From an uncultured virus (IMG/VR IMGVR_UViG_3300023198_000771) (lineage: Duplodnaviria > Heunggongvirae > Uroviricota > Caudoviricetes > Crassvirales): a DNA stretch of 64,000 nucleotides. The position numbers were made by a program, and so were the translations under genes. Location: IMG/VR virus record IMGVR_UViG_3300023198_000771. One strand, given 5' to 3'. The notes below the pieces were generated by a model that saw only the letters and a list, made by a program, of their open reading frames with translations, was not told where the DNA came from and did no database searches. The first letter of the stretch is position 1. Each line of letters begins with the position of its first letter. Shown here piece by piece: positions 7,739 to 18,032 of the stretch.

Positions 7739-8021
7739 GTTCGATATTTCCGGCAAGGTATTATTTGTAGGGATGCCTATCTTCTACACAGACAAGATGA
7801 GTAAGCGAATACTGGTCCTGGAAGTGTGGGTAGATGGTAAGTATAAGCAAGAGGTCCCGTTCGATTACGTGAACGACAAGATGGATCTCATGAACAACAT
7901 CCGGATCAATGATTGGGTGAATGTTGATTTCATCCTGAGAGGCCGTAAGAAGATCCAGGAAAATGGGAAGGCGGTTTGGTATAGTAACAATGAAGGTATC
8001 ACCTGTGTAAAGCAAGACTGA
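7716..8021 (+). CDS. DUF3127 family OB-fold (SSB/PriB-like) protein
   Basis: FDISGKV...KRILVLE...V.VDFILRGRK...WYSNN; typical of Bacteroidota; start at ATG 7716. Confidence 0.75.
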   Translation: MAAVQKNEFDISGKVLFVGMPIFYTDKMSKRILVLEVWVDGKYKQEVPFDYVNDKMDLMNNIRINDWVNVDFILRGRKKIQENGKAVWYSNNEGITCVKQD

Positions 8022-8022
8022 A

Positions 8023-8385
8023 ATGGAGAGCCGGTACGATGAAATGTATAAACAGGTAGCAGAGTTTCATAAAGAACATCCGGAGGTTTGGGATCTGTTT
8101 AAGAAGTTCACCTTTGAGAAGATCAAGCAGGGGTTTAAGAATTATGGGGCCAGAAATATTATTGAACGGATTCGGTGGGAAACAGATAAACCCAATGAGC
8201 AGGGGGTTGGAACCTTCAAGATCAATAATAACTACCATCCTTTCTATGCGAGAAGATTTATGAGGAAATTTCCAGAGCATGAAGGTTTTTTCAGGACCCG
8301 GGAGCAGATCAGTAAGAAGCAACCGGCCACTAATCTTCCGGAACTGGGACCAGATGATCATCCATATACAAACCAAGATGAGTAG
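8023..8385 (+). CDS. Conserved phage hypothetical protein
   Basis: ERIRWET...FKINNNYHPFYAR...FFRTR pattern recalled from phage proteins; function unknown. Confidence 0.7.
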   Translation: MESRYDEMYKQVAEFHKEHPEVWDLFKKFTFEKIKQGFKNYGARNIIERIRWETDKPNEQGVGTFKINNNYHPFYARRFMRKFPEHEGFFRTREQISKKQPATNLPELGPDDHPYTNQDE

Positions 8386-8953
8386 CGGAGAAAAAATCAA
8401 ACTGGAAAAGGCTATGAACGTGGCCAGACGATTCCTTGCACTGGTTGATCCTTTCATTGTGAAGGGTGAGATGGCCGGTAGTGTCCGGAGAGGGTGCGGG
8501 TTGGTAGGCGATATTGAGATCGTTGTTGTTGAGGATCCATTCAACAGCATTGATAACCTCTTTCACGATAAGTACCCAGGCATGGTAGTCAATGGGCCAC
8601 GGTTGAAGCGATTCAAGTATCCCAAAGACAAGATCCAGGTGGAATTATACATTGCACAGGCGCATGACTACGGGAGGATCCTTGCGATCAGGACCGGATC
8701 CAGTGCGTACAGCCACAGCCAACTGGCTGTCCAATGGAACAGATTAGGGTGGTGTGGAACCTCTTTAGGGTTGAGGCGCAAGTCGGAGTGTGATAAAAAA
8801 AGCACCTGGAAGGTAAAACCAGAGTTTAAGGGGAAAGAAACCAAACCCCCAATATTTAATACAGAGTATGATTTCTTTGATTTCCTGCAGATCCCATGGA
8901 TACCTCCGGGGGAGAGGAATTGGAAGAGTAAACACAATGAGTTAAACTATTAA
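8378..8953 (+). CDS. Minimal DNA polymerase X-family nucleotidyltransferase
   Basis: AGSVRRG..VGDIEIV, RTGS, LQIPWIPPGER; start at ATG 8378. Confidence 0.85.
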   Translation: MSSGEKIKLEKAMNVARRFLALVDPFIVKGEMAGSVRRGCGLVGDIEIVVVEDPFNSIDNLFHDKYPGMVVNGPRLKRFKYPKDKIQVELYIAQAHDYGRILAIRTGSSAYSHSQLAVQWNRLGWCGTSLGLRRKSECDKKSTWKVKPEFKGKETKPPIFNTEYDFFDFLQIPWIPPGERNWKSKHNELNY

Positions 8954-8993
8954 TCTTAAAATTTACATTATGAAAAAGAACATTGGAATTTTA

Positions 8994-9093
8994 NNNNNNN
9001 NNNNNNNNNNNNNNNNNNNNNNNNNNNNNNNNNNNNNNNNNNNNNNNNNNNNNNNNNNNNNNNNNNNNNNNNNNNNNNNNNNNNNNNNNNNNN
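8994..9093. other. Scaffold gap (100 N) flanked by an identical 55-bp duplication (8939-8993 = 9094-9148)
   Basis: Seen directly. Confidence 0.95.
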
Positions 9094-9124
9094 GAGTTAA
9101 ACTATTAATCTTAAAATTTACATT

Positions 9125-9895
9125 ATGAAAAAGAACATTGGAATTTTATTGATGGTGCTATCCATGATAGCATTTGTCGGGTGTGAAGAAATGCCTGTTG
9201 AACCGGAAGAACTGACCAAATCTGCATTGAAAGGTGCCAATGAGCCAGATGGAAGTAACAACAACCTGGATAGCGTAGAGGTTGGCTTTATAGCAGATAT
9301 TGATGGAAATGTATATCAGACAGTGGAGATTGGAGATCAGACATGGATGGCTGAAAATTTAAGAGTAACTCATTATCCAGATGGAACTCCAATTCCTACT
9401 ACATTGGAATTATTGACGGGGGAAGATCCTGCCGATTATCATTGGTCTTATAATTATGAAGAATATAATGATGATACTTGGGGAAAATATTATACATACA
9501 CTGCCTCTCAAAATGTTTGTCCAGAGGGATGGAGGGTACCTACAAGGGAAGATATATATACTTTAGCAATATTTGTAGGTGAAGATCCAGACACCACTAC
9601 AATTCCCAGTGAAGATTACAAATTGAGTTATGAACTTAGAACAGCAGATCTTCAGTGGTGGAAAAATATTGATAATGTAACGAATGAAGTAAATTTTAAT
9701 GCAAGAGGGTCTGGGGCATATTATCCTTATAGTGAAAGTCCATATTTTGCACGTTTAAGATATGCAACTACATATTGGCTTCAAGATACTATGCTATTTG
9801 CATTTAGTTGGGCGAATGATGATTCTCCAATCCAGAAGGGGTATCTTAATAATGAACTTAATAGTGGATTTTCGGTTCGTTGTGTGAAAGATTAA
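9125..9895 (+). CDS. FISUMP (Fib_succ_major) domain lipoprotein
   Basis: Lipoprotein signal (..AFVGC), DIDGNVYQTVEIGDQTWMAENL, VCPEGWRVPT, GFSVRCVKD. Confidence 0.9.
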   Translation: MKKNIGILLMVLSMIAFVGCEEMPVEPEELTKSALKGANEPDGSNNNLDSVEVGFIADIDGNVYQTVEIGDQTWMAENLRVTHYPDGTPIPTTLELLTGEDPADYHWSYNYEEYNDDTWGKYYTYTASQNVCPEGWRVPTREDIYTLAIFVGEDPDTTTIPSEDYKLSYELRTADLQWWKNIDNVTNEVNFNARGSGAYYPYSESPYFARLRYATTYWLQDTMLFAFSWANDDSPIQKGYLNNELNSGFSVRCVKD

Positions 9896-9915
9896 CTTTT
9901 AATTATATAACTACT

Positions 9916-11442
9916 ATGGAACAAGACAAATTAGCAACGAAGCAAGGAACATTCCTTGACACGGCAATCATGGATCTGGCACAGATGCAGGTTGCAGCGA
10001 AGATGATCCTGGACAGCAAATTGGCTCCGGATCACTTCTATGAGAAACTACCAGACAATAAGCCTGACTACACAAAGGGGAAGGTTGAGTCTGTAATCCT
10101 GGTGTGTGTACACGGCCATGACCTTGGTTTGAAGCCTTTGGTGGCCTTACAGCACATTATTCCGGTCAACGGTCTATTGAGTATCAAAGGAGATGCAGCT
10201 AAGACGCTTATCTTCAATTCTGGTAAGCTGAAGCCGGGATCCTGGAAGGAAACTATCACCGGATCTATCGCCAATGGTGACTATGTGTGTACCATGACTG
10301 CAGAGAGGCTTGACACGAAGGAGGTAATGTCCCGGACCTTTGGTGTAGAACAGGCAAAGAGAGCCGGACTATGGATTGATGATAAGAAGCTGAAGGGTAA
10401 TGATGGGTGGAAGTATCTGAAGTCTGCATGGTACAAGTATCCTGAGAGGATGATGGCGTATCGTGCGTTGGGTTTCCTTTCGAGGGATCTATTCCCCGAT
10501 GTGCTTTCCGGTAGCTATACCACAGAGGAAGCTATTGATATGCCTGTCGATACATCCCTGGTAGTTCAGACAAATTCAGGAGCAGAGGTCATTGTTCCTG
10601 ACACGGAGTTCAGCAAGGACAGGAGTGAGGATCTGACCAGTAAGGCCAGTGCGCAGATTGATAAGAGGGCAGGGGAACTGGAACCGAAACCGAGAGAAGA
10701 GGTACATCCGGAGTCCCAGGCTCATATCAGGCAGCAGCCTATGACTATTGATGAAGCGCATCCAGTAGCACAGGAGGATAATTCTGCCCAAAGACAGCAC
10801 AAGGGAACAATGCTCAATGGTACGCCAGGGTGGGTCCCTGTCTATAATGAGGAAGAGTTGAGAGAAATGGATGCTCTTTCCGAATTGAATCCACTGATAG
10901 AGCATGACAGTATGATGGTTAAGTGCAGGGATATTGATCCTGGGAAGAATACCAATAAGAAGTTGAGGACTATCCTGCTGGCCCATTATGCAGGGGAAAC
11001 AATCACCTTGTATGCCAAGTTTGATCCAGAGCCGGATATAGATGCACCGGCACAGGATCCACCACCGGTACCAGAACCAGAACCAGAGCCAGAGAATCAG
11101 CCAGAATATGAAGCCGTGGTGGAGAGTGAGGCAGAGGAAGAGGATCCACCACCTGCTGACGATGTACAGCCAAATACCGGCTTTGATGTCAGTGCGCCTG
11201 ATCCAGGTACCGATGTAAACAAGTTTGAGATTGAAGTTCCCGAACTGGTAGATGGTAAACGTGGGTTTGATCAGGTCAAGACACTCTTTGAAGAACTTGC
11301 CAACAAAGCAGGGATAGATAACAATGCCTATGATAACATAGTTAAGACGAAGTTCCCCGAGTTTCAGAAGTACAGGAGTAAGGAGGATTTCTGCTACATG
11401 GGAGAAGTGTCCGAGATCAACACCTTGCTTAATAGTATTTGA
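9916..11442 (+). CDS. RecT/Bet-like single-strand annealing protein with long acidic Pro-rich C-terminus
   Basis: GHDLGLKPLVALQHIIPVNG, AKRAGLW, WYKYPERMMAYRA..RDLFPDVL.G.YT.EE; start ATG 9916. Confidence 0.75.
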   Translation: MEQDKLATKQGTFLDTAIMDLAQMQVAAKMILDSKLAPDHFYEKLPDNKPDYTKGKVESVILVCVHGHDLGLKPLVALQHIIPVNGLLSIKGDAAKTLIFNSGKLKPGSWKETITGSIANGDYVCTMTAERLDTKEVMSRTFGVEQAKRAGLWIDDKKLKGNDGWKYLKSAWYKYPERMMAYRALGFLSRDLFPDVLSGSYTTEEAIDMPVDTSLVVQTNSGAEVIVPDTEFSKDRSEDLTSKASAQIDKRAGELEPKPREEVHPESQAHIRQQPMTIDEAHPVAQEDNSAQRQHKGTMLNGTPGWVPVYNEEELREMDALSELNPLIEHDSMMVKCRDIDPGKNTNKKLRTILLAHYAGETITLYAKFDPEPDIDAPAQDPPPVPEPEPEPENQPEYEAVVESEAEEEDPPPADDVQPNTGFDVSAPDPGTDVNKFEIEVPELVDGKRGFDQVKTLFEELANKAGIDNNAYDNIVKTKFPEFQKYRSKEDFCYMGEVSEINTLLNSI

Positions 11443-11455
11443 TTTCATACCTTTG
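11424..11455 (+). promoter_or_regulatory. Bacteroidota-type promoter
   Basis: cTTG (11424-11427) N20 TACCTTTG (11448-11455). Confidence 0.7.
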
Positions 11456-11487
11456 AAGTCGAACTCTTACTTAGAGACAATTAATTG

Positions 11488-11524
11488 GGGCAGTTGACCG
11501 AGATGGTGGACTGCCCTTCTTTTA
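11488..11524 (+). terminator. Intrinsic terminator/attenuator just downstream of the promoter
   Basis: GGGCAGT...ACTGCCC stem followed by TTCTTTT. Confidence 0.7.
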
Positions 11525-11545
11525 TTCACTTTAAAATTCAATATT

Positions 11546-12187
11546 ATGAACGATGAAAGCATTATTATTCACATTGCAAAGGCTTGTCACCAGGCTAACA
11601 AGATATGGTGTGAGGCCAATGGTGATCACAGTCAGGCTGATTGGGATCTTGCGGAGCAGTGGCAGAGGGAGTCTGCCATTAATGGAGTGAAGTTTAGGAT
11701 TGAGAATCCTAATGCCGGTAACGATGCCCAACACAACAATTGGATGAAGGAGAAGATTGATAATGGTTGGGAGTGGGGAGAGGTGAAAGACACCGATGCA
11801 AAAACGCATCCTTGTATAGTTACATTCGACAAGTTGCCAGAGTTCCAACAGAAAAAGGATGCCTTATTTGGATCTATTGTTGATGCCCTGGTAAAAGAAC
11901 CCTTTCATTTCAATTTCGAGGATCAGAGGATTATTGATCAAGATGAGTTTCACCAGAAAGATGTCAAGGCAGACAAACTTCTCCGGGTTGGTCTTGATGC
12001 CCAATTACAGAACCTAAAAGGATGTCATGGTTCCAGGGAGAGATCCCTTGCAATCACAAAGGTTCAGGAGGCTATTATGTGGCTTGGGATGGACTTAAAG
12101 AGGTTGAATGAACCAAACCCCTATCCGAACAGCTACAATCCTGCTAACAGCATTATTGAGCCAACGGCTGATGGTCTGAAGATGTAA
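11546..12187 (+). CDS. RyR-domain protein fused to an Acb2/Tad1-like helical hairpin (candidate anti-defence protein)
   Basis: N-term HNNWMKEKIDNGWEWGEVKDTDAKTHPCIVTFDKLPEFQQKKD (RyR repeat); C-term SRERSLAITKVQEAIMWLG. Confidence 0.75.
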   Translation: MNDESIIIHIAKACHQANKIWCEANGDHSQADWDLAEQWQRESAINGVKFRIENPNAGNDAQHNNWMKEKIDNGWEWGEVKDTDAKTHPCIVTFDKLPEFQQKKDALFGSIVDALVKEPFHFNFEDQRIIDQDEFHQKDVKADKLLRVGLDAQLQNLKGCHGSRERSLAITKVQEAIMWLGMDLKRLNEPNPYPNSYNPANSIIEPTADGLKM

Positions 12188-12194
12188 TCTTATA

Positions 12195-12220
12195 GCGGGG
12201 GATTAATTCCCCTGCTTTTT
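12195..12220 (+). terminator. Intrinsic terminator
   Basis: AGCGGGGGA-ttaat-TCCCCTGCT then TTTT. Confidence 0.75.
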
Positions 12221-12233
12221 ATACATTTATATT

Positions 12234-12428
12234 ATGGAAGAGAGAAAGAGCAGTAACGATTGGTGGCATGACCACGAATTGTTTCCTATAATGAGAATCC
12301 AGGACCCGGACGGATGGGACAGGTCGAACCTCCACTATTCATTCTATGAGGAAACAGTGAGCAAGGAAGAGTTTGAGCGCAGGATGGGATTGTCCACCTG
12401 TGTACCAAGAGATAAATCAAAGAAATGA
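12234..12428 (+). CDS. Hypothetical protein
   Basis: 64 aa ORF containing DPDGWDR. Confidence 0.65.
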   Translation: MEERKSSNDWWHDHELFPIMRIQDPDGWDRSNLHYSFYEETVSKEEFERRMGLSTCVPRDKSKK

Positions 12429-12913
12429 GTTATCAAATATTTGAGAAGCCTGGGATGGGGCAGCACCTCACTCAGACAGTCATCTTCAAACAGATCTGGA
12501 TGAGATCCAATAAGAAGTCATTCGTGTCTGGCCTATTCCTTCGCAAGTTCATGGCAACTGATCTTGCCTTCAACTGTTTTGCTCATGTTCTGGCCAAAGG
12601 ATTGAACCAATATCCTTATTTTAAGTATTATGCTAAGAATATCGTGCTTTTAACGCCCGGAGAACACGCTCTACTGGACCAGGGTACAGAAGAAGCCCGA
12701 ATATCTTACGCATTAGACGTTAAATCAGCCGATTGGCAGCGTTTGTACGATCTGAGGGAGGAATTGAAGGTGGAGTATAAAAAGGTTTTTCCAACCAGGA
12801 GAGGCTTGATCATCGGATACAAATACTCTCCGGCTGAACAGATGGCTAAGATAGGCTACCTCAATAAGGTGTTTTTCGAGTCTCAGTTGGAGGCCAAAAA
12901 AAAAGGGGGTTGA
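12425..12913 (+). CDS. HNH-like nuclease-fold protein
   Basis: FAHVLAKG..YP...NIVLLTPGEH pattern. Confidence 0.5.
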   Translation: MSYQIFEKPGMGQHLTQTVIFKQIWMRSNKKSFVSGLFLRKFMATDLAFNCFAHVLAKGLNQYPYFKYYAKNIVLLTPGEHALLDQGTEEARISYALDVKSADWQRLYDLREELKVEYKKVFPTRRGLIIGYKYSPAEQMAKIGYLNKVFFESQLEAKKKGG

Positions 12914-12930
12914 TAGCCCCCTTTCTTATT
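12896..12930. terminator. Bidirectional terminator between convergent modules
   Basis: A9-GGGGGT-tgata-GCCCCC-TTTCTT. Confidence 0.8.
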
Positions 12931-13250
12931 TATCGGATTCGCACATCCAACTGTGTGGGCGGTATTTGAGATCGTTGGACTTGCCAATGATAAACCTTAT
13001 CATCCGAGTTAATCCAGAACCTACGATGCTCCCAATAGTTTACAGGGCCATAGGACATTTGATAAACACCTTGTACTGACCAAGTGTGTATTTCACCACT
13101 CTTACCATCACTGGCTATTGCTGATGGTGGCCCCCAGGACATATAGAGGTTTTGTTTGGTACTCCCCATCCAGGAGTTCATAATTTCTTTCTGACTTGTG
13201 CATCCTGCCAGTAGGATAATTGCGATAATCATTAAGTGTTTCATAGTCAT
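12930..13250 (-). CDS. Small lipoprotein
   Basis: Lipobox LLAGC; WMG.TK..L..SWGPP. Confidence 0.75.
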   Translation of the reverse strand: MTMKHLMIIAIILLAGCTSQKEIMNSWMGSTKQNLYMSWGPPSAIASDGKSGEIHTWSVQGVYQMSYGPVNYWEHRRFWINSDDKVYHWQVQRSQIPPTQLDVRIR

Positions 13251-13253
13251 TGA

Positions 13254-13505
13254 TTATTTAGGTGTGTTACGAACTACAAAGTAATCTTCTTCAGGATCGA
13301 AAGAGGGTTCCAGTTCTTCACAGGCTTGTTGGATCTCCAATCCTTTGATCCCAATTCCTTCCAATGCCTTCCTGGATAACTTAAAGTGATTGCACTTGAG
13401 AATGAAGTGTCGCAGATCCTCTCCGGTCAGGGTGTTGATCCGTAGTTTGAATTGCTCATCGGTTATTACCGATATGAATACTCCTGGTCTAATCTCTTTT
13501 TCCAT
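13254..13505 (-). CDS. Hypothetical protein
   Basis: Probable start MEKEIRPG at 13505. Confidence 0.55.
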   Translation of the reverse strand: MEKEIRPGVFISVITDEQFKLRINTLTGEDLRHFILKCNHFKLSRKALEGIGIKGLEIQQACEELEPSFDPEEDYFVVRNTPK

Positions 13506-13761
13506 ATCGTTGAATATAAAGTTTGGGCCTGTTATCCCTGGGATGTAGTTCAAATTCAAGGCTACCTACCTTAAACTTGATTCCTTTTGCCATGATCTTG
13601 TACCAGGGAGTGCGGATTCTGATCCACAGAAGCCGTTTAGCGGTCCAATTTGCCACTTTATCGTACCAATGATACTTCCGGTATAGATACATCAATAGAT
13701 ACGTGATACCGAATGTTACGGCACTTGTGGCCACCATTCCTAAAATCATTTCTTTCTGCAT
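13489..13761 (-). CDS. Membrane-anchored hypothetical protein
   Basis: N-terminal hydrophobic helix; conserved leader AAAACCATACAACT-ATG. Confidence 0.6.
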   Translation of the reverse strand: MQKEMILGMVATSAVTFGITYLLMYLYRKYHWYDKVANWTAKRLLWIRIRTPWYKIMAKGIKFKVGSLEFELHPRDNRPKLYIQRYGKRD

Positions 13762-13775
13762 AGTTGTATGGTTTT

Positions 13776-13816
13776 AAAAAGCAGGAAGGAGAAACCAATA
13801 CAAACCCCTTCCTGCC
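13776..13816 (-). terminator. Terminator-like hairpin with loop GGUUUGUAUUGGUUUC
   Basis: Minus strand GCAGGAAGG...CCTTCCTGC-TTTTT. Confidence 0.7.
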
Positions 13817-13825
13817 CGAGTATCC

Positions 13826-14221
13826 CTATGTGTGGGACACCGTTTGGTTTTTTACATAATGCTCCAAATATTCAATAATCTTGGTCAATAGCTGTGCTTC
13901 AAATATATCATGGGTACGCATACGTTTGTCCACCCAGTAATGGATTAGCAGAACGATGTTGGGAGAGATGTACAGTTGATACTTCTGGTGATCGAAGTCT
14001 AACCAAATATCCGGTGGCCGGTACATGAACAGGCCAACAAATCCGAGGTGGCCTACTCTGGCTATCATCAGAGAAGGAATATCTGCTTCATGGAGTTTAG
14101 TCAGAAACATTGCCAAGTCTGGTAGCTTCATGTCCCATAGGAGGTCAAGGATCGTCATATCATCACCGTTGACCTTCATTGTCCCTTGCAGTGGTAGTTT
14201 TATGTCACCTATGAATTGCAT
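13826..14221 (-). CDS. Hypothetical protein
   Basis: ORF in minus-strand operon. Confidence 0.6.
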   Translation of the reverse strand: MQFIGDIKLPLQGTMKVNGDDMTILDLLWDMKLPDLAMFLTKLHEADIPSLMIARVGHLGFVGLFMYRPPDIWLDFDHQKYQLYISPNIVLLIHYWVDKRMRTHDIFEAQLLTKIIEYLEHYVKNQTVSHT

Positions 14222-14961: not shown

Positions 14962-16050
14962 TTAACTTGGTCCTGCTGAGTCACCGAACGCACCAGAAGG
15001 GAGTTCCCAAGTATCAACGAAAATAGGATCGTTATATTCTGTTTGGGTTCCTGCTTTGATGAGTTCAGCACTCAGTCCATTTACACAGGCTTTGAATACC
15101 TTGCCAGTGGTAGCCTGTTCAACCACTGACTTAGTGCGGTGTATGGTTGTACCGAAATCCTGCTCGTATTCAGCTATCCGGTCAAATCCTTTTTGGTCTA
15201 TGTGCTGCACACTGGCCCATTGATTCTTTGAGCCAAAGATGCACTTCATACATGATAAGCGTCCCCATCCCAATTTGTAGGCAGGGTGAGGGTTCACCTT
15301 GTATTTACCAATGATGTCCCAAACCTGGGTTTCAGTCCATGCGTGGACGGGCCTCCAATGGTCAACATGACGTTTACTCTTCCCATTGCGTCTATCTGCC
15401 CTATCTGGCTCGAAAGTGTGGTATTTGGCTCTGGATGTGCTTTCTTCGGCACGTTCACCAGTTATGACCAGTGTGCGTTTGTTGTGGAAGCGGCTCTGGT
15501 TGGTGATGGCAGCCGTACATACATCTATCTTTAGATATGCTGAACACCATCTCACACTCAGGTTGGCTGACACCTGTGGAAACTTCTGTCTGGTATTGTC
15601 TGGCCCTTTGCCACCAGATAGGCCACACTCAATAAGGTTGTCCTCTGGATACTCCCAGTGGTTCCGGGAGGTGGGGGAGTTGAGGCGGTTCATCTCACGT
15701 TCAAATCCTCCCTCCTTCCATGAATAGAATATGGGTAGATCAAATGCACTGGCCACCTTCCTGCAATAGTCCTCAGTACAGGCCCAATCCATCAGCGTTG
15801 ATCCTTCCTTACCATCAATGAGGTGGTGCCACAGCTCAATCTTACTGCGATCCACACCGAGTTCAAACAGGTGAAGCAGACAGGCCGTTGAGTCCTTGCC
15901 CCCGGAGAAGGCAAGGATAACATGGTCATAGCTGTTTAGATCAGCCTCAATGGAGCGAGTCAGCTCCTCCTGCTGTTGGATCAGAGCAACCATGTCCAGT
16001 TGCCCTGACCCTCTCATCTGTTCACTGGTGAATAAAGAGTTCTGCATCAC
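14962..16050 (-). CDS. PAPS-reductase family (PP-loop, DndC-like) protein
   Basis: AFSGGKDS PP-loop, RWCSAYLK, TGERAEES..RA, WRPV..WT, RLSCMKCIF. Confidence 0.88.
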   Translation of the reverse strand: MMQNSLFTSEQMRGSGQLDMVALIQQQEELTRSIEADLNSYDHVILAFSGGKDSTACLLHLFELGVDRSKIELWHHLIDGKEGSTLMDWACTEDYCRKVASAFDLPIFYSWKEGGFEREMNRLNSPTSRNHWEYPEDNLIECGLSGGKGPDNTRQKFPQVSANLSVRWCSAYLKIDVCTAAITNQSRFHNKRTLVITGERAEESTSRAKYHTFEPDRADRRNGKSKRHVDHWRPVHAWTETQVWDIIGKYKVNPHPAYKLGWGRLSCMKCIFGSKNQWASVQHIDQKGFDRIAEYEQDFGTTIHRTKSVVEQATTGKVFKACVNGLSAELIKAGTQTEYNDPIFVDTWELPSGAFGDSAGPS

Positions 16051-16968: not shown

Positions 16969-17148
16969 TTAAGTGAATAACCAGTGTGTTATTGATAGGT
17001 TCTCCCGGTACACCTCTGCATGGGAGTATTCGTTCTCATCCTTCAACCAAGTGGCCAATAGGTATAGTTCACCGGGAAGGATGTATTGCTTGTGGGGTGG
17101 GCCTTTATGCCTGTAAATAATTACCCAATATGCTACTCTTGTTTTCAT
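16969..17148 (-). CDS. Small hypothetical protein (59 aa)
   Basis: MKTRVAYWVII...HWLFT*; ATGA overlap with the methyltransferase stop. Confidence 0.55.
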   Translation of the reverse strand: MKTRVAYWVIIYRHKGPPHKQYILPGELYLLATWLKDENEYSHAEVYRENLSITHWLFT

Positions 17149-18032
17149 ATCAGTTCGTGTTGGTTAAAATATCTTATTGCTTCCTCACCGATCCACTTGG
17201 CCAGTGGTGGACATACAGCGTTACCGATCTGCTTGTACTGCTCAGTCTCACCACCATGAAATACATAGCTATCAGGGAATCCCATTACTCTGGCATACTC
17301 TCTGACAGTGAAGGGGCGATAGCCAACAGGGACAGAAGGATCAACAATCACTTGATGGCCCTTATTCTTGCCATACTGGGCCAGTAAGCACCTTGCATAG
17401 GTTCGGGGGTCACTTGGGTCAAGGATCACAGGTTTGTCCCTGTATTCACCGTCAAAACGTGCGACAACACTGCTTGTTGGTTCTATCCCGTTCCACTCAT
17501 CCAATAGATCAGATAACAATGGTCTGACAGTTACCTCTGGTGGCCTGAGTTCAAATGGCTTCCGGGTACCGATCAGGATCAAGCGAGGGCGTGACTGTGG
17601 TAGCCAGTTCAGCGAGTTCACCGGACATAGTATATTAATATAGTAGTCGGGGAGTTCTTGCATGGCTTCCATCACCACTGGAAACTTCTTCATGCCGGGG
17701 ACATTCTCAACGATATACATCTCCGGTTCCTCAATGGCAATGTGACGAAAGAAATGGAGGAAGAGATCATCACCTGTGCGGCTGCCCTTGATGTCAGCTA
17801 TTGCGCTGTAATGAGTGCAGGGATATGTACCCAGTATAATGGGAGTGGATGGCTGATCTTTTACCCTGATGTCCTTGATGTCCATCTCAAGCACTTTATG
17901 GTCATGGTTGGCCCGGAGGGTGGCAGCAGCATGAGGATCAAGTTCAAGGCTTTGTATAACCTTGATCCCGGCTTCCTTCATGCCCTGATCCATGCCCCCG
18001 GCACCACTGAAATATGATTTAGCTTCTATCAT
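17145..18032 (-). CDS. DNA (cytosine-5)-methyltransferase
   Basis: Motifs I FSGAGG, IV YPC, VI ENVPG, VIII QSRPR, IX/X REYARVMGFP..QIGNAV. Confidence 0.95.
   Translation of the reverse strand: MIEAKSYFSGAGGMDQGMKEAGIKVIQSLELDPHAAATLRANHDHKVLEMDIKDIRVKDQPSTPIILGTYPCTHYSAIADIKGSRTGDDLFLHFFRHIAIEEPEMYIVENVPGMKKFPVVMEAMQELPDYYINILCPVNSLNWLPQSRPRLILIGTRKPFELRPPEVTVRPLLSDLLDEWNGIEPTSSVVARFDGEYRDKPVILDPSDPRTYARCLLAQYGKNKGHQVIVDPSVPVGYRPFTVREYARVMGFPDSYVFHGGETEQYKQIGNAVCPPLAKWIGEEAIRYFNQHELI

Follow-up and report, generated by a model that had tools for sequence, protein, structure and literature searches.

A phage protein joining a ryanodine receptor Repeat12 domain to an Acb2/Tad1-type hairpin: a candidate dual sponge for Thoeris and CBASS signals

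The phage protein RyDEP (gp78 of mycobacteriophage DyoEdafos), a member of the ryanodine receptor (RyR) domain family, cleaves the 2' and 3' forms of cyclic ADP-ribose (2'cADPR and 3'cADPR) and defeats Thoeris defense (PMC13232231). Of eight RyDEP homologues, six bound the signals, but cleavage was seen with none; the two that were studied in more detail, H4 and H7, are nanomolar sponges that defeat type I Thoeris (PMC13232231). H7 matches RyR Tad, which is gp68 of Pectobacterium phage vB_PatP_CB1, a dimeric sponge for glyco-cyclic ADP-ribose (gcADPR) with a dissociation constant of 43 nM and with ligand residues H129/W132, K147/H154, and K170/D171 (10.64898/2026.06.04.730250). Acb2 and Tad1 are sponges of a second kind. 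In Tad1, R88 and T95 coordinate the phosphates of the cyclic trinucleotides cyclic triadenylate (cA3) and cyclic AMP-AMP-GMP (cAAG) at a three-fold interface, and K96, Q98, E99, M102, and W103 build the hexamer; Acb2 has an Arg/Thr pair, R67/T74, with the same spacing of 7. Here, we analyze a gene at 11546..12187 of a 64,000-nucleotide stretch of an uncultured Crassvirales virus (IMG/VR record IMGVR_UViG_3300023198_000771; this whole stretch is hereafter called the window). Its product joins an RyR domain to a hairpin of the Acb2/Tad1 type. We consider it probable, though far from certain, that this fusion protein is a two-module dual sponge directed against both Thoeris and the cyclic oligonucleotide-based antiphage signaling system (CBASS).

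The open reading frame (ORF) reported here by an earlier annotation made from the letters of the DNA (the sequence-only reading) is real. It lies on the plus strand, begins with ATG, and encodes 213 amino acids followed by a stop codon. A protein-collection search returned 1164 homologues at an E value of ≤0.001, and an AlphaFold2 model built on 40 homologues reached a mean predicted local distance difference test (pLDDT) score of 89.1. Precomputed labels on the protein (P0001) are PF24729.3 and PF02026.22. The RyR signature that the sequence-only reading had seen in the N-terminal part proved to lie far beyond chance: PF02026 (RyR) matches residues 62-105 with an E value of 1.8e-10 (41.3 bits against a cut-off of 27.4), and phmmer against the PDB finds a Bacteroides/human RyR Repeat12 chimera with an E value of 2.8e-20, RyR1-3 with values of about 1e-14, and also the "putative ryanodine receptor" of B. 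thetaiotaomicron. This RyR/Repeat12 (R12) domain of the RyDEP/RyR Tad family occupies residues 1-117 (11546..11896, plus strand). AlphaFold2 models it with helices at residues 3-24, 38-53, 59-72, and 99-116 (pLDDT, 83-97), which is the all-alpha, four-helix R12 fold. In VIA-align, the N-terminal domain of the model superposed on human RyR3 Repeat12 (9l91_A) with a Z score of 9.9 and a root mean square deviation of 2.9 Å over 118 aligned residues, while the next unrelated chain scored 6.4. Foldseek of the whole model against the PDB returned RyR entries only.

The ligand pocket of the characterized proteins is retained in this domain. In ungapped registers read by eye, H63, W66, K81, H88, K104, and D105 match H129, W132, K147, H154, K170, and D171 of RyR Tad, and H63, W66, H88, and D105 match the RyDEP pocket residues H75, W78, H100, and D117. 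Across 150 representatives of RyR clusters formed at 50% identity, there is no variation at H63, K81, or H88, and W66, K104, and D105 are each kept in at least 90%. Like RyR Tad and H4, the window protein has a phage R12/RyR domain in which all six ligand residues recur, and two-domain proteins occur in that family. RyR Tad and H4 are dimers that bind 3'cADPR/2'cADPR with nanomolar affinity and defeat type I Thoeris (PMC13232231; 10.64898/2026.06.04.730250); the homodimer of the RyDEP-type family forms through helices alpha1 and alpha4. In gp68, however, the RyR domain is C-terminal and stands behind a beta-sheet domain for which no activity was seen, whereas in the window protein it is N-terminal and is followed by the Acb2/Tad1-type hairpin. 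With RyDEP, the window protein shares the PF02026 family, the fold, and the H/W/H/D pocket. Unlike RyDEP, a single-domain glycosidase encoded in a NARP1 NAD-salvage operon, it is a distant relative fused to a second module. The sequence-only reading had suggested a link between phage RyR domains and immune second messengers, and the two papers on RyDEP and RyR Tad bear it out (PMC13232231; 10.64898/2026.06.04.730250).

The second module is a two-helix hairpin of the Acb2/Tad1 type at residues 132-186 (11939..12103, plus strand). The sequence-only reading had assigned the C-terminal motif to this type, and the assignment held: PF24729 matches residues 154-180 with an E value of 6.2e-6 and 26.7 bits, just under the curated cut-off of 27. 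Stand-alone relatives, 64-80% identical, reach 27.4-36.5 bits, such that the profile is matched above its cut-off at the level of the family, though not by the window protein itself. In the AlphaFold2 model, helices 132-158 and 164-186 run antiparallel with pLDDT values of 86-98, and they do the same when the module is folded alone. A profile of 39 mostly stand-alone relatives matches CmTad1 (8kbb) with an E value of 4.6e-6. In this ungapped alignment, Tad1 R88 and T95 fall on R164 (12035-12037) and T171 (12056-12058), and the hexamer-building residues K96, Q98, E99, M102, and W103 fall on K172, Q174, E175, M178, and W179. Both in 40 fusions and in the 39 mostly stand-alone relatives, T171 is invariant and R164 is kept in at least 90%.

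On either side of the hairpin lie two further elements. The linker, residues 118-131 (11897..11938, plus strand), is modeled with low confidence (pLDDT blocks of 77 and 62 over residues 111-130). It holds an aromatic F-x-F-x-F stretch, and by eye a similar stretch is found N-terminally in many stand-alone relatives of the C-terminal module. Behind the hairpin, residues 187-213 (12104..12184, plus strand) form an extended, nearly invariant tail of the NPYP...TADGLK type, which AlphaFold2 models without secondary structure (pLDDT, 77-80). Alignments show this tail to be common to the fusions and to those stand-alone relatives that make up what we call the NPYP subtype.

Both modules also exist outside this fusion. 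Searching with residues 125-213 (the C-module) returned 2713 proteins of 48-156 amino acids at an E value of ≤0.01, and the best 120 of these are 64-80% identical to it and nearly all labeled PF24729. With so many relatives of such size, the C-module is also a common phage gene in its own right, with a product of about 80-100 amino acids. Among 80 IMG/VR loci fetched with the C-module, 79 have a matching ORF; 6 of these are RyR fusions and 73 lack RyR. A split form, with a separate RyR ORF within 2.5 kb of the C-module ORF, occurs at none of them. The fusion itself recurs: when the whole protein was searched, 42 among the best 120 homologues carried both Pfam labels, at 40-100% identity over 81-100% of the length, except for two rows that match the RyR half only. 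Among the 150 RyR cluster representatives, the hairpin is found in 11, Phage_gp49_66 in 8, and a Tad2-like domain in 2. How often the fusion arose is a separate matter. Only 9 of 117 inner branches are well supported in a tree of 120 RyR domains; the best tree implies 6 changes for the NPYP-subtype fusion, of which supported branches force only 1, and at least 2 for the Tad2 fusions. Because the tree is so poorly resolved, fusion events cannot be counted from it.

Among cultured phages, only the N4-like Sulfitobacter phage phiCB2047-B shares the RyR + PF24729 architecture. Its hypothetical protein SUFG_00048 scores 40.5 bits to RyR and 33.4 bits to PF24729, the latter above the cut-off, and is 42% identical to the window protein over residues 7-179. 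Unlike the window's, the SUFG_00048 hairpin is of the classical Acb2 subtype, with an FNPSG-type lead and no NPYP tail. The stand-alone NPYP subtype, for its part, occurs in Tenacibaculum phage Gundel_1, in Bacteroides phage BK735P4, and in two crAss-like phages, and it was also found elsewhere, mostly in metagenome-assembled genome (MAG) contigs of Bacteroidota.

Several other arrangements of these domains came to light. RyR domains 57-72% identical to that of the window are fused to a Tad2-like domain in six proteins (P0046, P0053, P0057, P0086, P0099, and P0116); this fusion was checked directly in P0046, where PF11195 matches with an E value of 1e-22, and in P0057. One 355-residue protein (P0038) has the reversed order, with a weak Acb2/Tad1 hairpin match at residues 7-46 (E value, 5e-4), RyR at residues 285-328, and about 240 residues between them. 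At another IMG/VR locus (L047, 2309-2725, plus strand), the fusion partner of an NPYP-subtype hairpin is a DUF1508 domain at the N terminus (PF07411; E value, 1.2e-7). RyR-domain matches are found in 273 cultured-phage records. The labels on RyR genes in phage records include "ryanodine receptor," "Ca2+ release channel domain containing protein," "minor head protein" (Erythrobacter phage XM05), and hypothetical.

How close is the C-module to the described hairpin sponges? It is like Tad1 (CbTad1 and CmTad1; 7uav and 8kbb) in the sequence kinship of the hairpin, in the cA3-binding Arg/Thr pair, and in the hexamer-interface residues, and the fusion as a whole would, like Tad1, join a gcADPR site to a cyclic trinucleotide site. 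It is not a whole Tad1, because both the beta-sheet domain and the residues of the gcADPR pocket are missing: no beta-sheet domain of the Tad1 type is present in the model, in which the all-alpha RyR domain and the linker precede the hairpin. The presumed gcADPR site would instead come from the unrelated RyR domain, and the long conserved tail behind the hairpin is a further difference from Tad1. The likeness to Acb2 (PaMx33 Acb2, T4 Vs.4, and the 46 "Acb2" homologues of Hadary et al. 2025) lies in PF24729, in the stand-alone size of about 65-100 amino acids, and in the Arg/Thr spacing of 7. Unlike the classical Acb2 sequences listed in PMC12393519, the window subtype has the NPYP-type tail. 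One protein of that study links the subtype to activity. "Acb2" homologue no. 5 rescued phage on the Escherichia albertii CBASS that signals with 3'3'-cyclic GMP-AMP (3'3'-cGAMP) and was inactive on six other systems, namely cyclic UMP-AMP (cUA) CBASS, type I, II, and IV Thoeris, and both Pycsar systems (PMC12393519). By eye it shares the motif blocks of the NPYP subtype, and it is the only such member of the 84 proteins tested.

A number of observations weigh against the dual-sponge reading. The PF24729 score of the window protein falls 0.3 bit short of the curated cut-off, and of the 58 profile positions only 27-52, the second helix, are matched. Residues F82, N92, and R109 of the Tad1 pocket for gcADPR and cyclic dinucleotides (CDNs) align with N156, R166, and D183 (ungapped, 7uav_A); CbTad1 R113 lies beyond the aligned stretch of 7uav_A and would fall on L187 if the alignment were extended without gaps. 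PDB sequence searches with the module or its profile matched no Acb2 chain. No alignment reaches the N-terminal part in which Acb2 has its CDN pocket, with a stacking Tyr (Y11) and a Lys (K26); by eye, the aromatic F-x-F stretch and an invariant K144 are candidate counterparts. Homologue no. 5 has an internal duplication that is absent from the window protein, and its screen lacked cyclic trinucleotides. Nor does having the right residues guarantee binding: the T4 Acb2 D61R mutant still fails to bind cA3, so the right residue is insufficient there, and two of the eight RyDEP homologues did not bind signals (PMC13232231), so conserved residues carry no guarantee for the RyR half either. Fold searches, finally, did not help. 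Foldseek of the C-module alone against the PDB gave a best E value of 0.79; Tad1 chains took ranks 2, 3, 7-9, 11, and 13 (E values, 0.85-1.8). VIA-align gave a Z score of 4.8 to CbTad1, while generic helical hairpins reached 8-9.4 in a comparison with 48,161 representatives and 8-10 when the Foldseek list was realigned; no Acb2 chain is among the Foldseek or VIA-align matches listed. Hundreds of unrelated chains resemble a two-helix hairpin, so fold similarity cannot tell a sponge hairpin apart, and the refutation test proposed in the sequence-only reading, structural similarity of this domain to Acb2/Tad1, decides nothing. Since these searches were uninformative, our argument for the C-module is built on the sequence profile and the functional residues.

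Perhaps, then, the hairpin is only a scaffold that oligomerizes the RyR domain, raising avidity or the local number of pockets, and binds no nucleotide itself? The protein would in that case be anti-Thoeris only. The residues shared with Tad1 double as its hexamer interface, such that their conservation could reflect assembly alone; the PF24729 match is confined to the second helix; and T4 Acb2 does not bind cA3 despite having the Thr. The module thrives alone, however, both among its 2713 relatives and at the 73 of 79 IMG/VR loci without RyR, and an oligomerization tag without a partner would be functionless. Moreover, homologue no. 5, assigned to the subtype by eye, inhibited cGAMP CBASS on its own (PMC12393519), and mere assembly does not explain the near-invariance of the 27-residue tail. 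We regard the scaffold explanation as unlikely, and favor instead a hairpin that would itself bind signals.

The RyR half raises a different question, as it could be an enzyme rather than a sponge. It would then act as a RyDEP-type inverting glycosidase, cutting the ribose-ribose bond of 2'/3'cADPR to yield ADPR, with the hairpin acting as a sponge all the same. The RyDEP catalytic dyad H75/D117 is indeed present, as H63/D105, together with W66 and H88, and PMC13232231 describes both modes within the RyDEP family. The dyad does not discriminate between sponge and enzyme, however, since by eye the sponge-type homologues carry it as well, and only RyDEP itself cleaved the signals while none of its eight homologues did (PMC13232231). 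RyDEP Q54, which its authors mutated, aligns with E42 if the alignment is left ungapped (a weak point, read by eye). The 139-residue PDB chain 35tm_A, a "RyR domain-containing protein," matches the window domain with an E value of 1.7e-7 (34.4 bits); its length and register (query residue 63 is chain residue 75) suggest that it is RyDEP. A Ruegeria-phage gene, by its host genus and by eye the sponge-type homologue H4, is much nearer, at 44.8% identity over residues 5-118. Because the domain is closer to this gene than to the chain that is probably RyDEP, sequence favors a sponge mode over cleavage as a glycosidase. In addition, no NARP1 gene was named when most ORFs of at least 100 amino acids between 33 and 21902 were scanned with PHROG and Pfam, although distant forms could escape such scans. 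Taken together, these data make the glycosidase explanation quite improbable, and a sequestering RyR half remains the reading that we prefer. The proposal of the sequence-only reading, a two-module protein that acts on cyclic oligonucleotide or ADPR-derived signals, likewise finds support in these computed results and in the literature.

The genomic setting fits a gene of the early/replication region of a tailed phage genome of about 77 kb. PHROG scans identify the window as a segment of such a genome: upstream of the fusion gene lie genes for a primase/helicase, a RecE-like exonuclease, a RusA-like resolvase, a topoisomerase, and a RecT-like annealing protein, and farther along the window are the large terminase, portal, and tail proteins. 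That the protein might not be a counterdefense factor at all, but a regulator that senses a nucleotide or metabolite, controls phage replication or recombination, and shares its folds with sponges, would agree with its position behind recT within the replication/recombination block and with the binding of ATP and drugs by animal R12 domains (PMC13232231; 10.64898/2026.06.04.730250), but it is highly improbable, since immune signals are the target of all phage members of the two families that have been tested to date, two terminator-like hairpins bracket the cassette, as is often seen with accessory genes, and anti-signaling genes of N4-like phages also adjoin replication genes (10.64898/2026.06.04.730250).

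The fusion ORF begins 103 nucleotides past the stop codon of recT (11440-11442). On its right edge, the cassette ends in an intrinsic-terminator-like hairpin with a T run at 12194..12216 (plus strand), 7 nucleotides past the fusion stop codon. A terminator scan describes a 9-bp stem with 6 GC pairs followed by TTTTTAT, and the fold has a z score of -3.88, with none of 200 shuffled sequences folding equally well. The downstream terminator reported by the sequence-only reading is therefore real, but the remainder of its account of the flanks fared less well. It had credited the gene with a promoter of its own, which was not confirmed. No sigma-70-like site is present on the plus strand of the 103-nucleotide upstream spacer (11443-11545). 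TAnnTTTG is the Bacteroidota-type -7 consensus. It does match at 11448-11455, but the window holds no more copies of the motif than expected (41 against 42.9). As to the leader hairpin, the structure exists: a hairpin followed by a T-rich run lies at 11487..11517 (plus strand) and forms the left boundary of the cassette. A simple terminator scan missed it; the spacer as a whole folds at -29.6 kcal/mol with a z score of -4.12, which 1 of 200 shuffled sequences equaled. Because it stands 45 nucleotides past the recT stop codon and has a T-rich run behind it, we read it as probably the terminator of the upstream recT gene rather than as a leader.

Several neighboring genes can be described. The RecT-like protein (9880-11442, plus strand) has 520 amino acids, with a RecT match over about residues 12-300 only; the remainder is a long acidic, proline-rich extension. 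Before it, at 9125-9895 on the plus strand, lies a gene for a lipoprotein-like protein with a signal peptide with Cys and a Fibrobacter succinogenes major paralogous domain (PF09603, Fib_succ_major; E value, 5.4e-31), a family typical of Bacteroidota and Fibrobacter surface proteins. GC content is lower around this gene (0.385 in 8001-10000). Behind the terminator of the fusion gene come a 64-codon ORF at 12234-12428 (plus strand) that matches phrog_11725 (E value, 8.7e-14) and a 162-codon ORF at 12425-12913 (plus strand) without a PHROG or Pfam match. On the opposite strand, a 3'-phosphoadenosine-5'-phosphosulfate (PAPS)-reductase-like gene (14962-16050; phrog_424; E value, 4.9e-34) and a DNA methyltransferase gene (17145-18032; phrog_116; E value, 1.4e-59) could together form a DNA-modification or anti-restriction block. 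When positions 9000-14000 were compared with cultured phages by blastn, the sole match was 200 nucleotides of Vibrio phage Kuja. The host of the phage is probably a member of the Bacteroidota, given the stand-alone NPYP subtype in Tenacibaculum, Bacteroides, and crAss-like phages and in Bacteroidota MAG contigs, together with the Fib_succ_major lipoprotein gene.

How might the two modules work together in a dual sponge? From the domains, residues, and models described above, we infer ligand binding, oligomeric state, and activity in vivo as follows. The RyR half (residues 1-117) would dimerize back-to-back and hold 3'cADPR/2'cADPR (gcADPR) in the pocket formed by H63, W66, K81, H88, K104, and D105; with the cADPR signal sequestered, the Thoeris effector would stay off. 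The hairpin half (residues ~118-213) would assemble the chains into a higher oligomer, which in Acb2 and Tad1 is a hexamer. At the three-fold faces of this oligomer, one chain would contribute R164 and its neighbor T171 to the binding of cyclic trinucleotides. This hairpin subtype may possibly bind 3'3'-cGAMP as well, such that CBASS would be blocked. The outcome would be the silencing of Thoeris and CBASS effectors at once. There is precedent for this in an unrelated protein: for the Acb4-Sequestin fusion, gp59 of Pseudomonas phage Ab09, anti-CBASS and anti-Thoeris activities have both been demonstrated (10.64898/2026.06.04.730250). Acb4-Sequestin is like the window protein in joining an anti-CBASS and an anti-Thoeris module in one polypeptide, and unlike it in that both of its domains are unrelated to those of the window protein.

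A more specific architecture can be imagined, which we put forward tentatively and think rather less likely to hold than to fail. The protein may be a Tad1 by domain replacement, in which the hairpins form a D3 hexamer core with two cyclic trinucleotide pockets, and three back-to-back RyR dimers on the rim supply six cADPR pockets in place of the beta-sheet pockets. The tail (residues 187-213) would be a third element, either a lid or a site for a signal that has been assigned to no sponge yet.

The two modules and their ligands have already been published, as has the idea of fusing sponges (2022-2026). The specific pairing of RyR with an Acb2/Tad1 hairpin seems undescribed: full-text literature searches did not turn it up, nor did the passages and tables consulted in the two 2026 RyR preprints, though supplements beyond these may hold it, and by eye none of the eight RyDEP homologues in the supplementary table of PMC13232231 has this architecture.

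If the fusion protein is active as proposed, one small gene shields its phage both from Thoeris, with its cADPR signals, and from CBASS, with its cyclic oligonucleotides. It would be a third example of shuffled sponge modules, after Acb4-Sequestin and beside the RyR + Tad2-like fusions. The finding also points to an abundant and almost untested stand-alone subtype of the Acb2/Tad1 hairpin, which has 2713 relatives but a single representative among the 84 sponges of the largest screen published. For annotation, it means that phage genes labeled hypothetical, "ryanodine receptor," or "minor head protein" can now be named. The protein further offers a natural test of whether an RyR dimer and a hairpin hexamer can combine into a Tad1-like trimer of dimers. 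Should the domain-replacement architecture be true, it would amount to a modular, convergent rebuild of Tad1 and would explain the abundance of the NPYP subtype in Bacteroidota phages.

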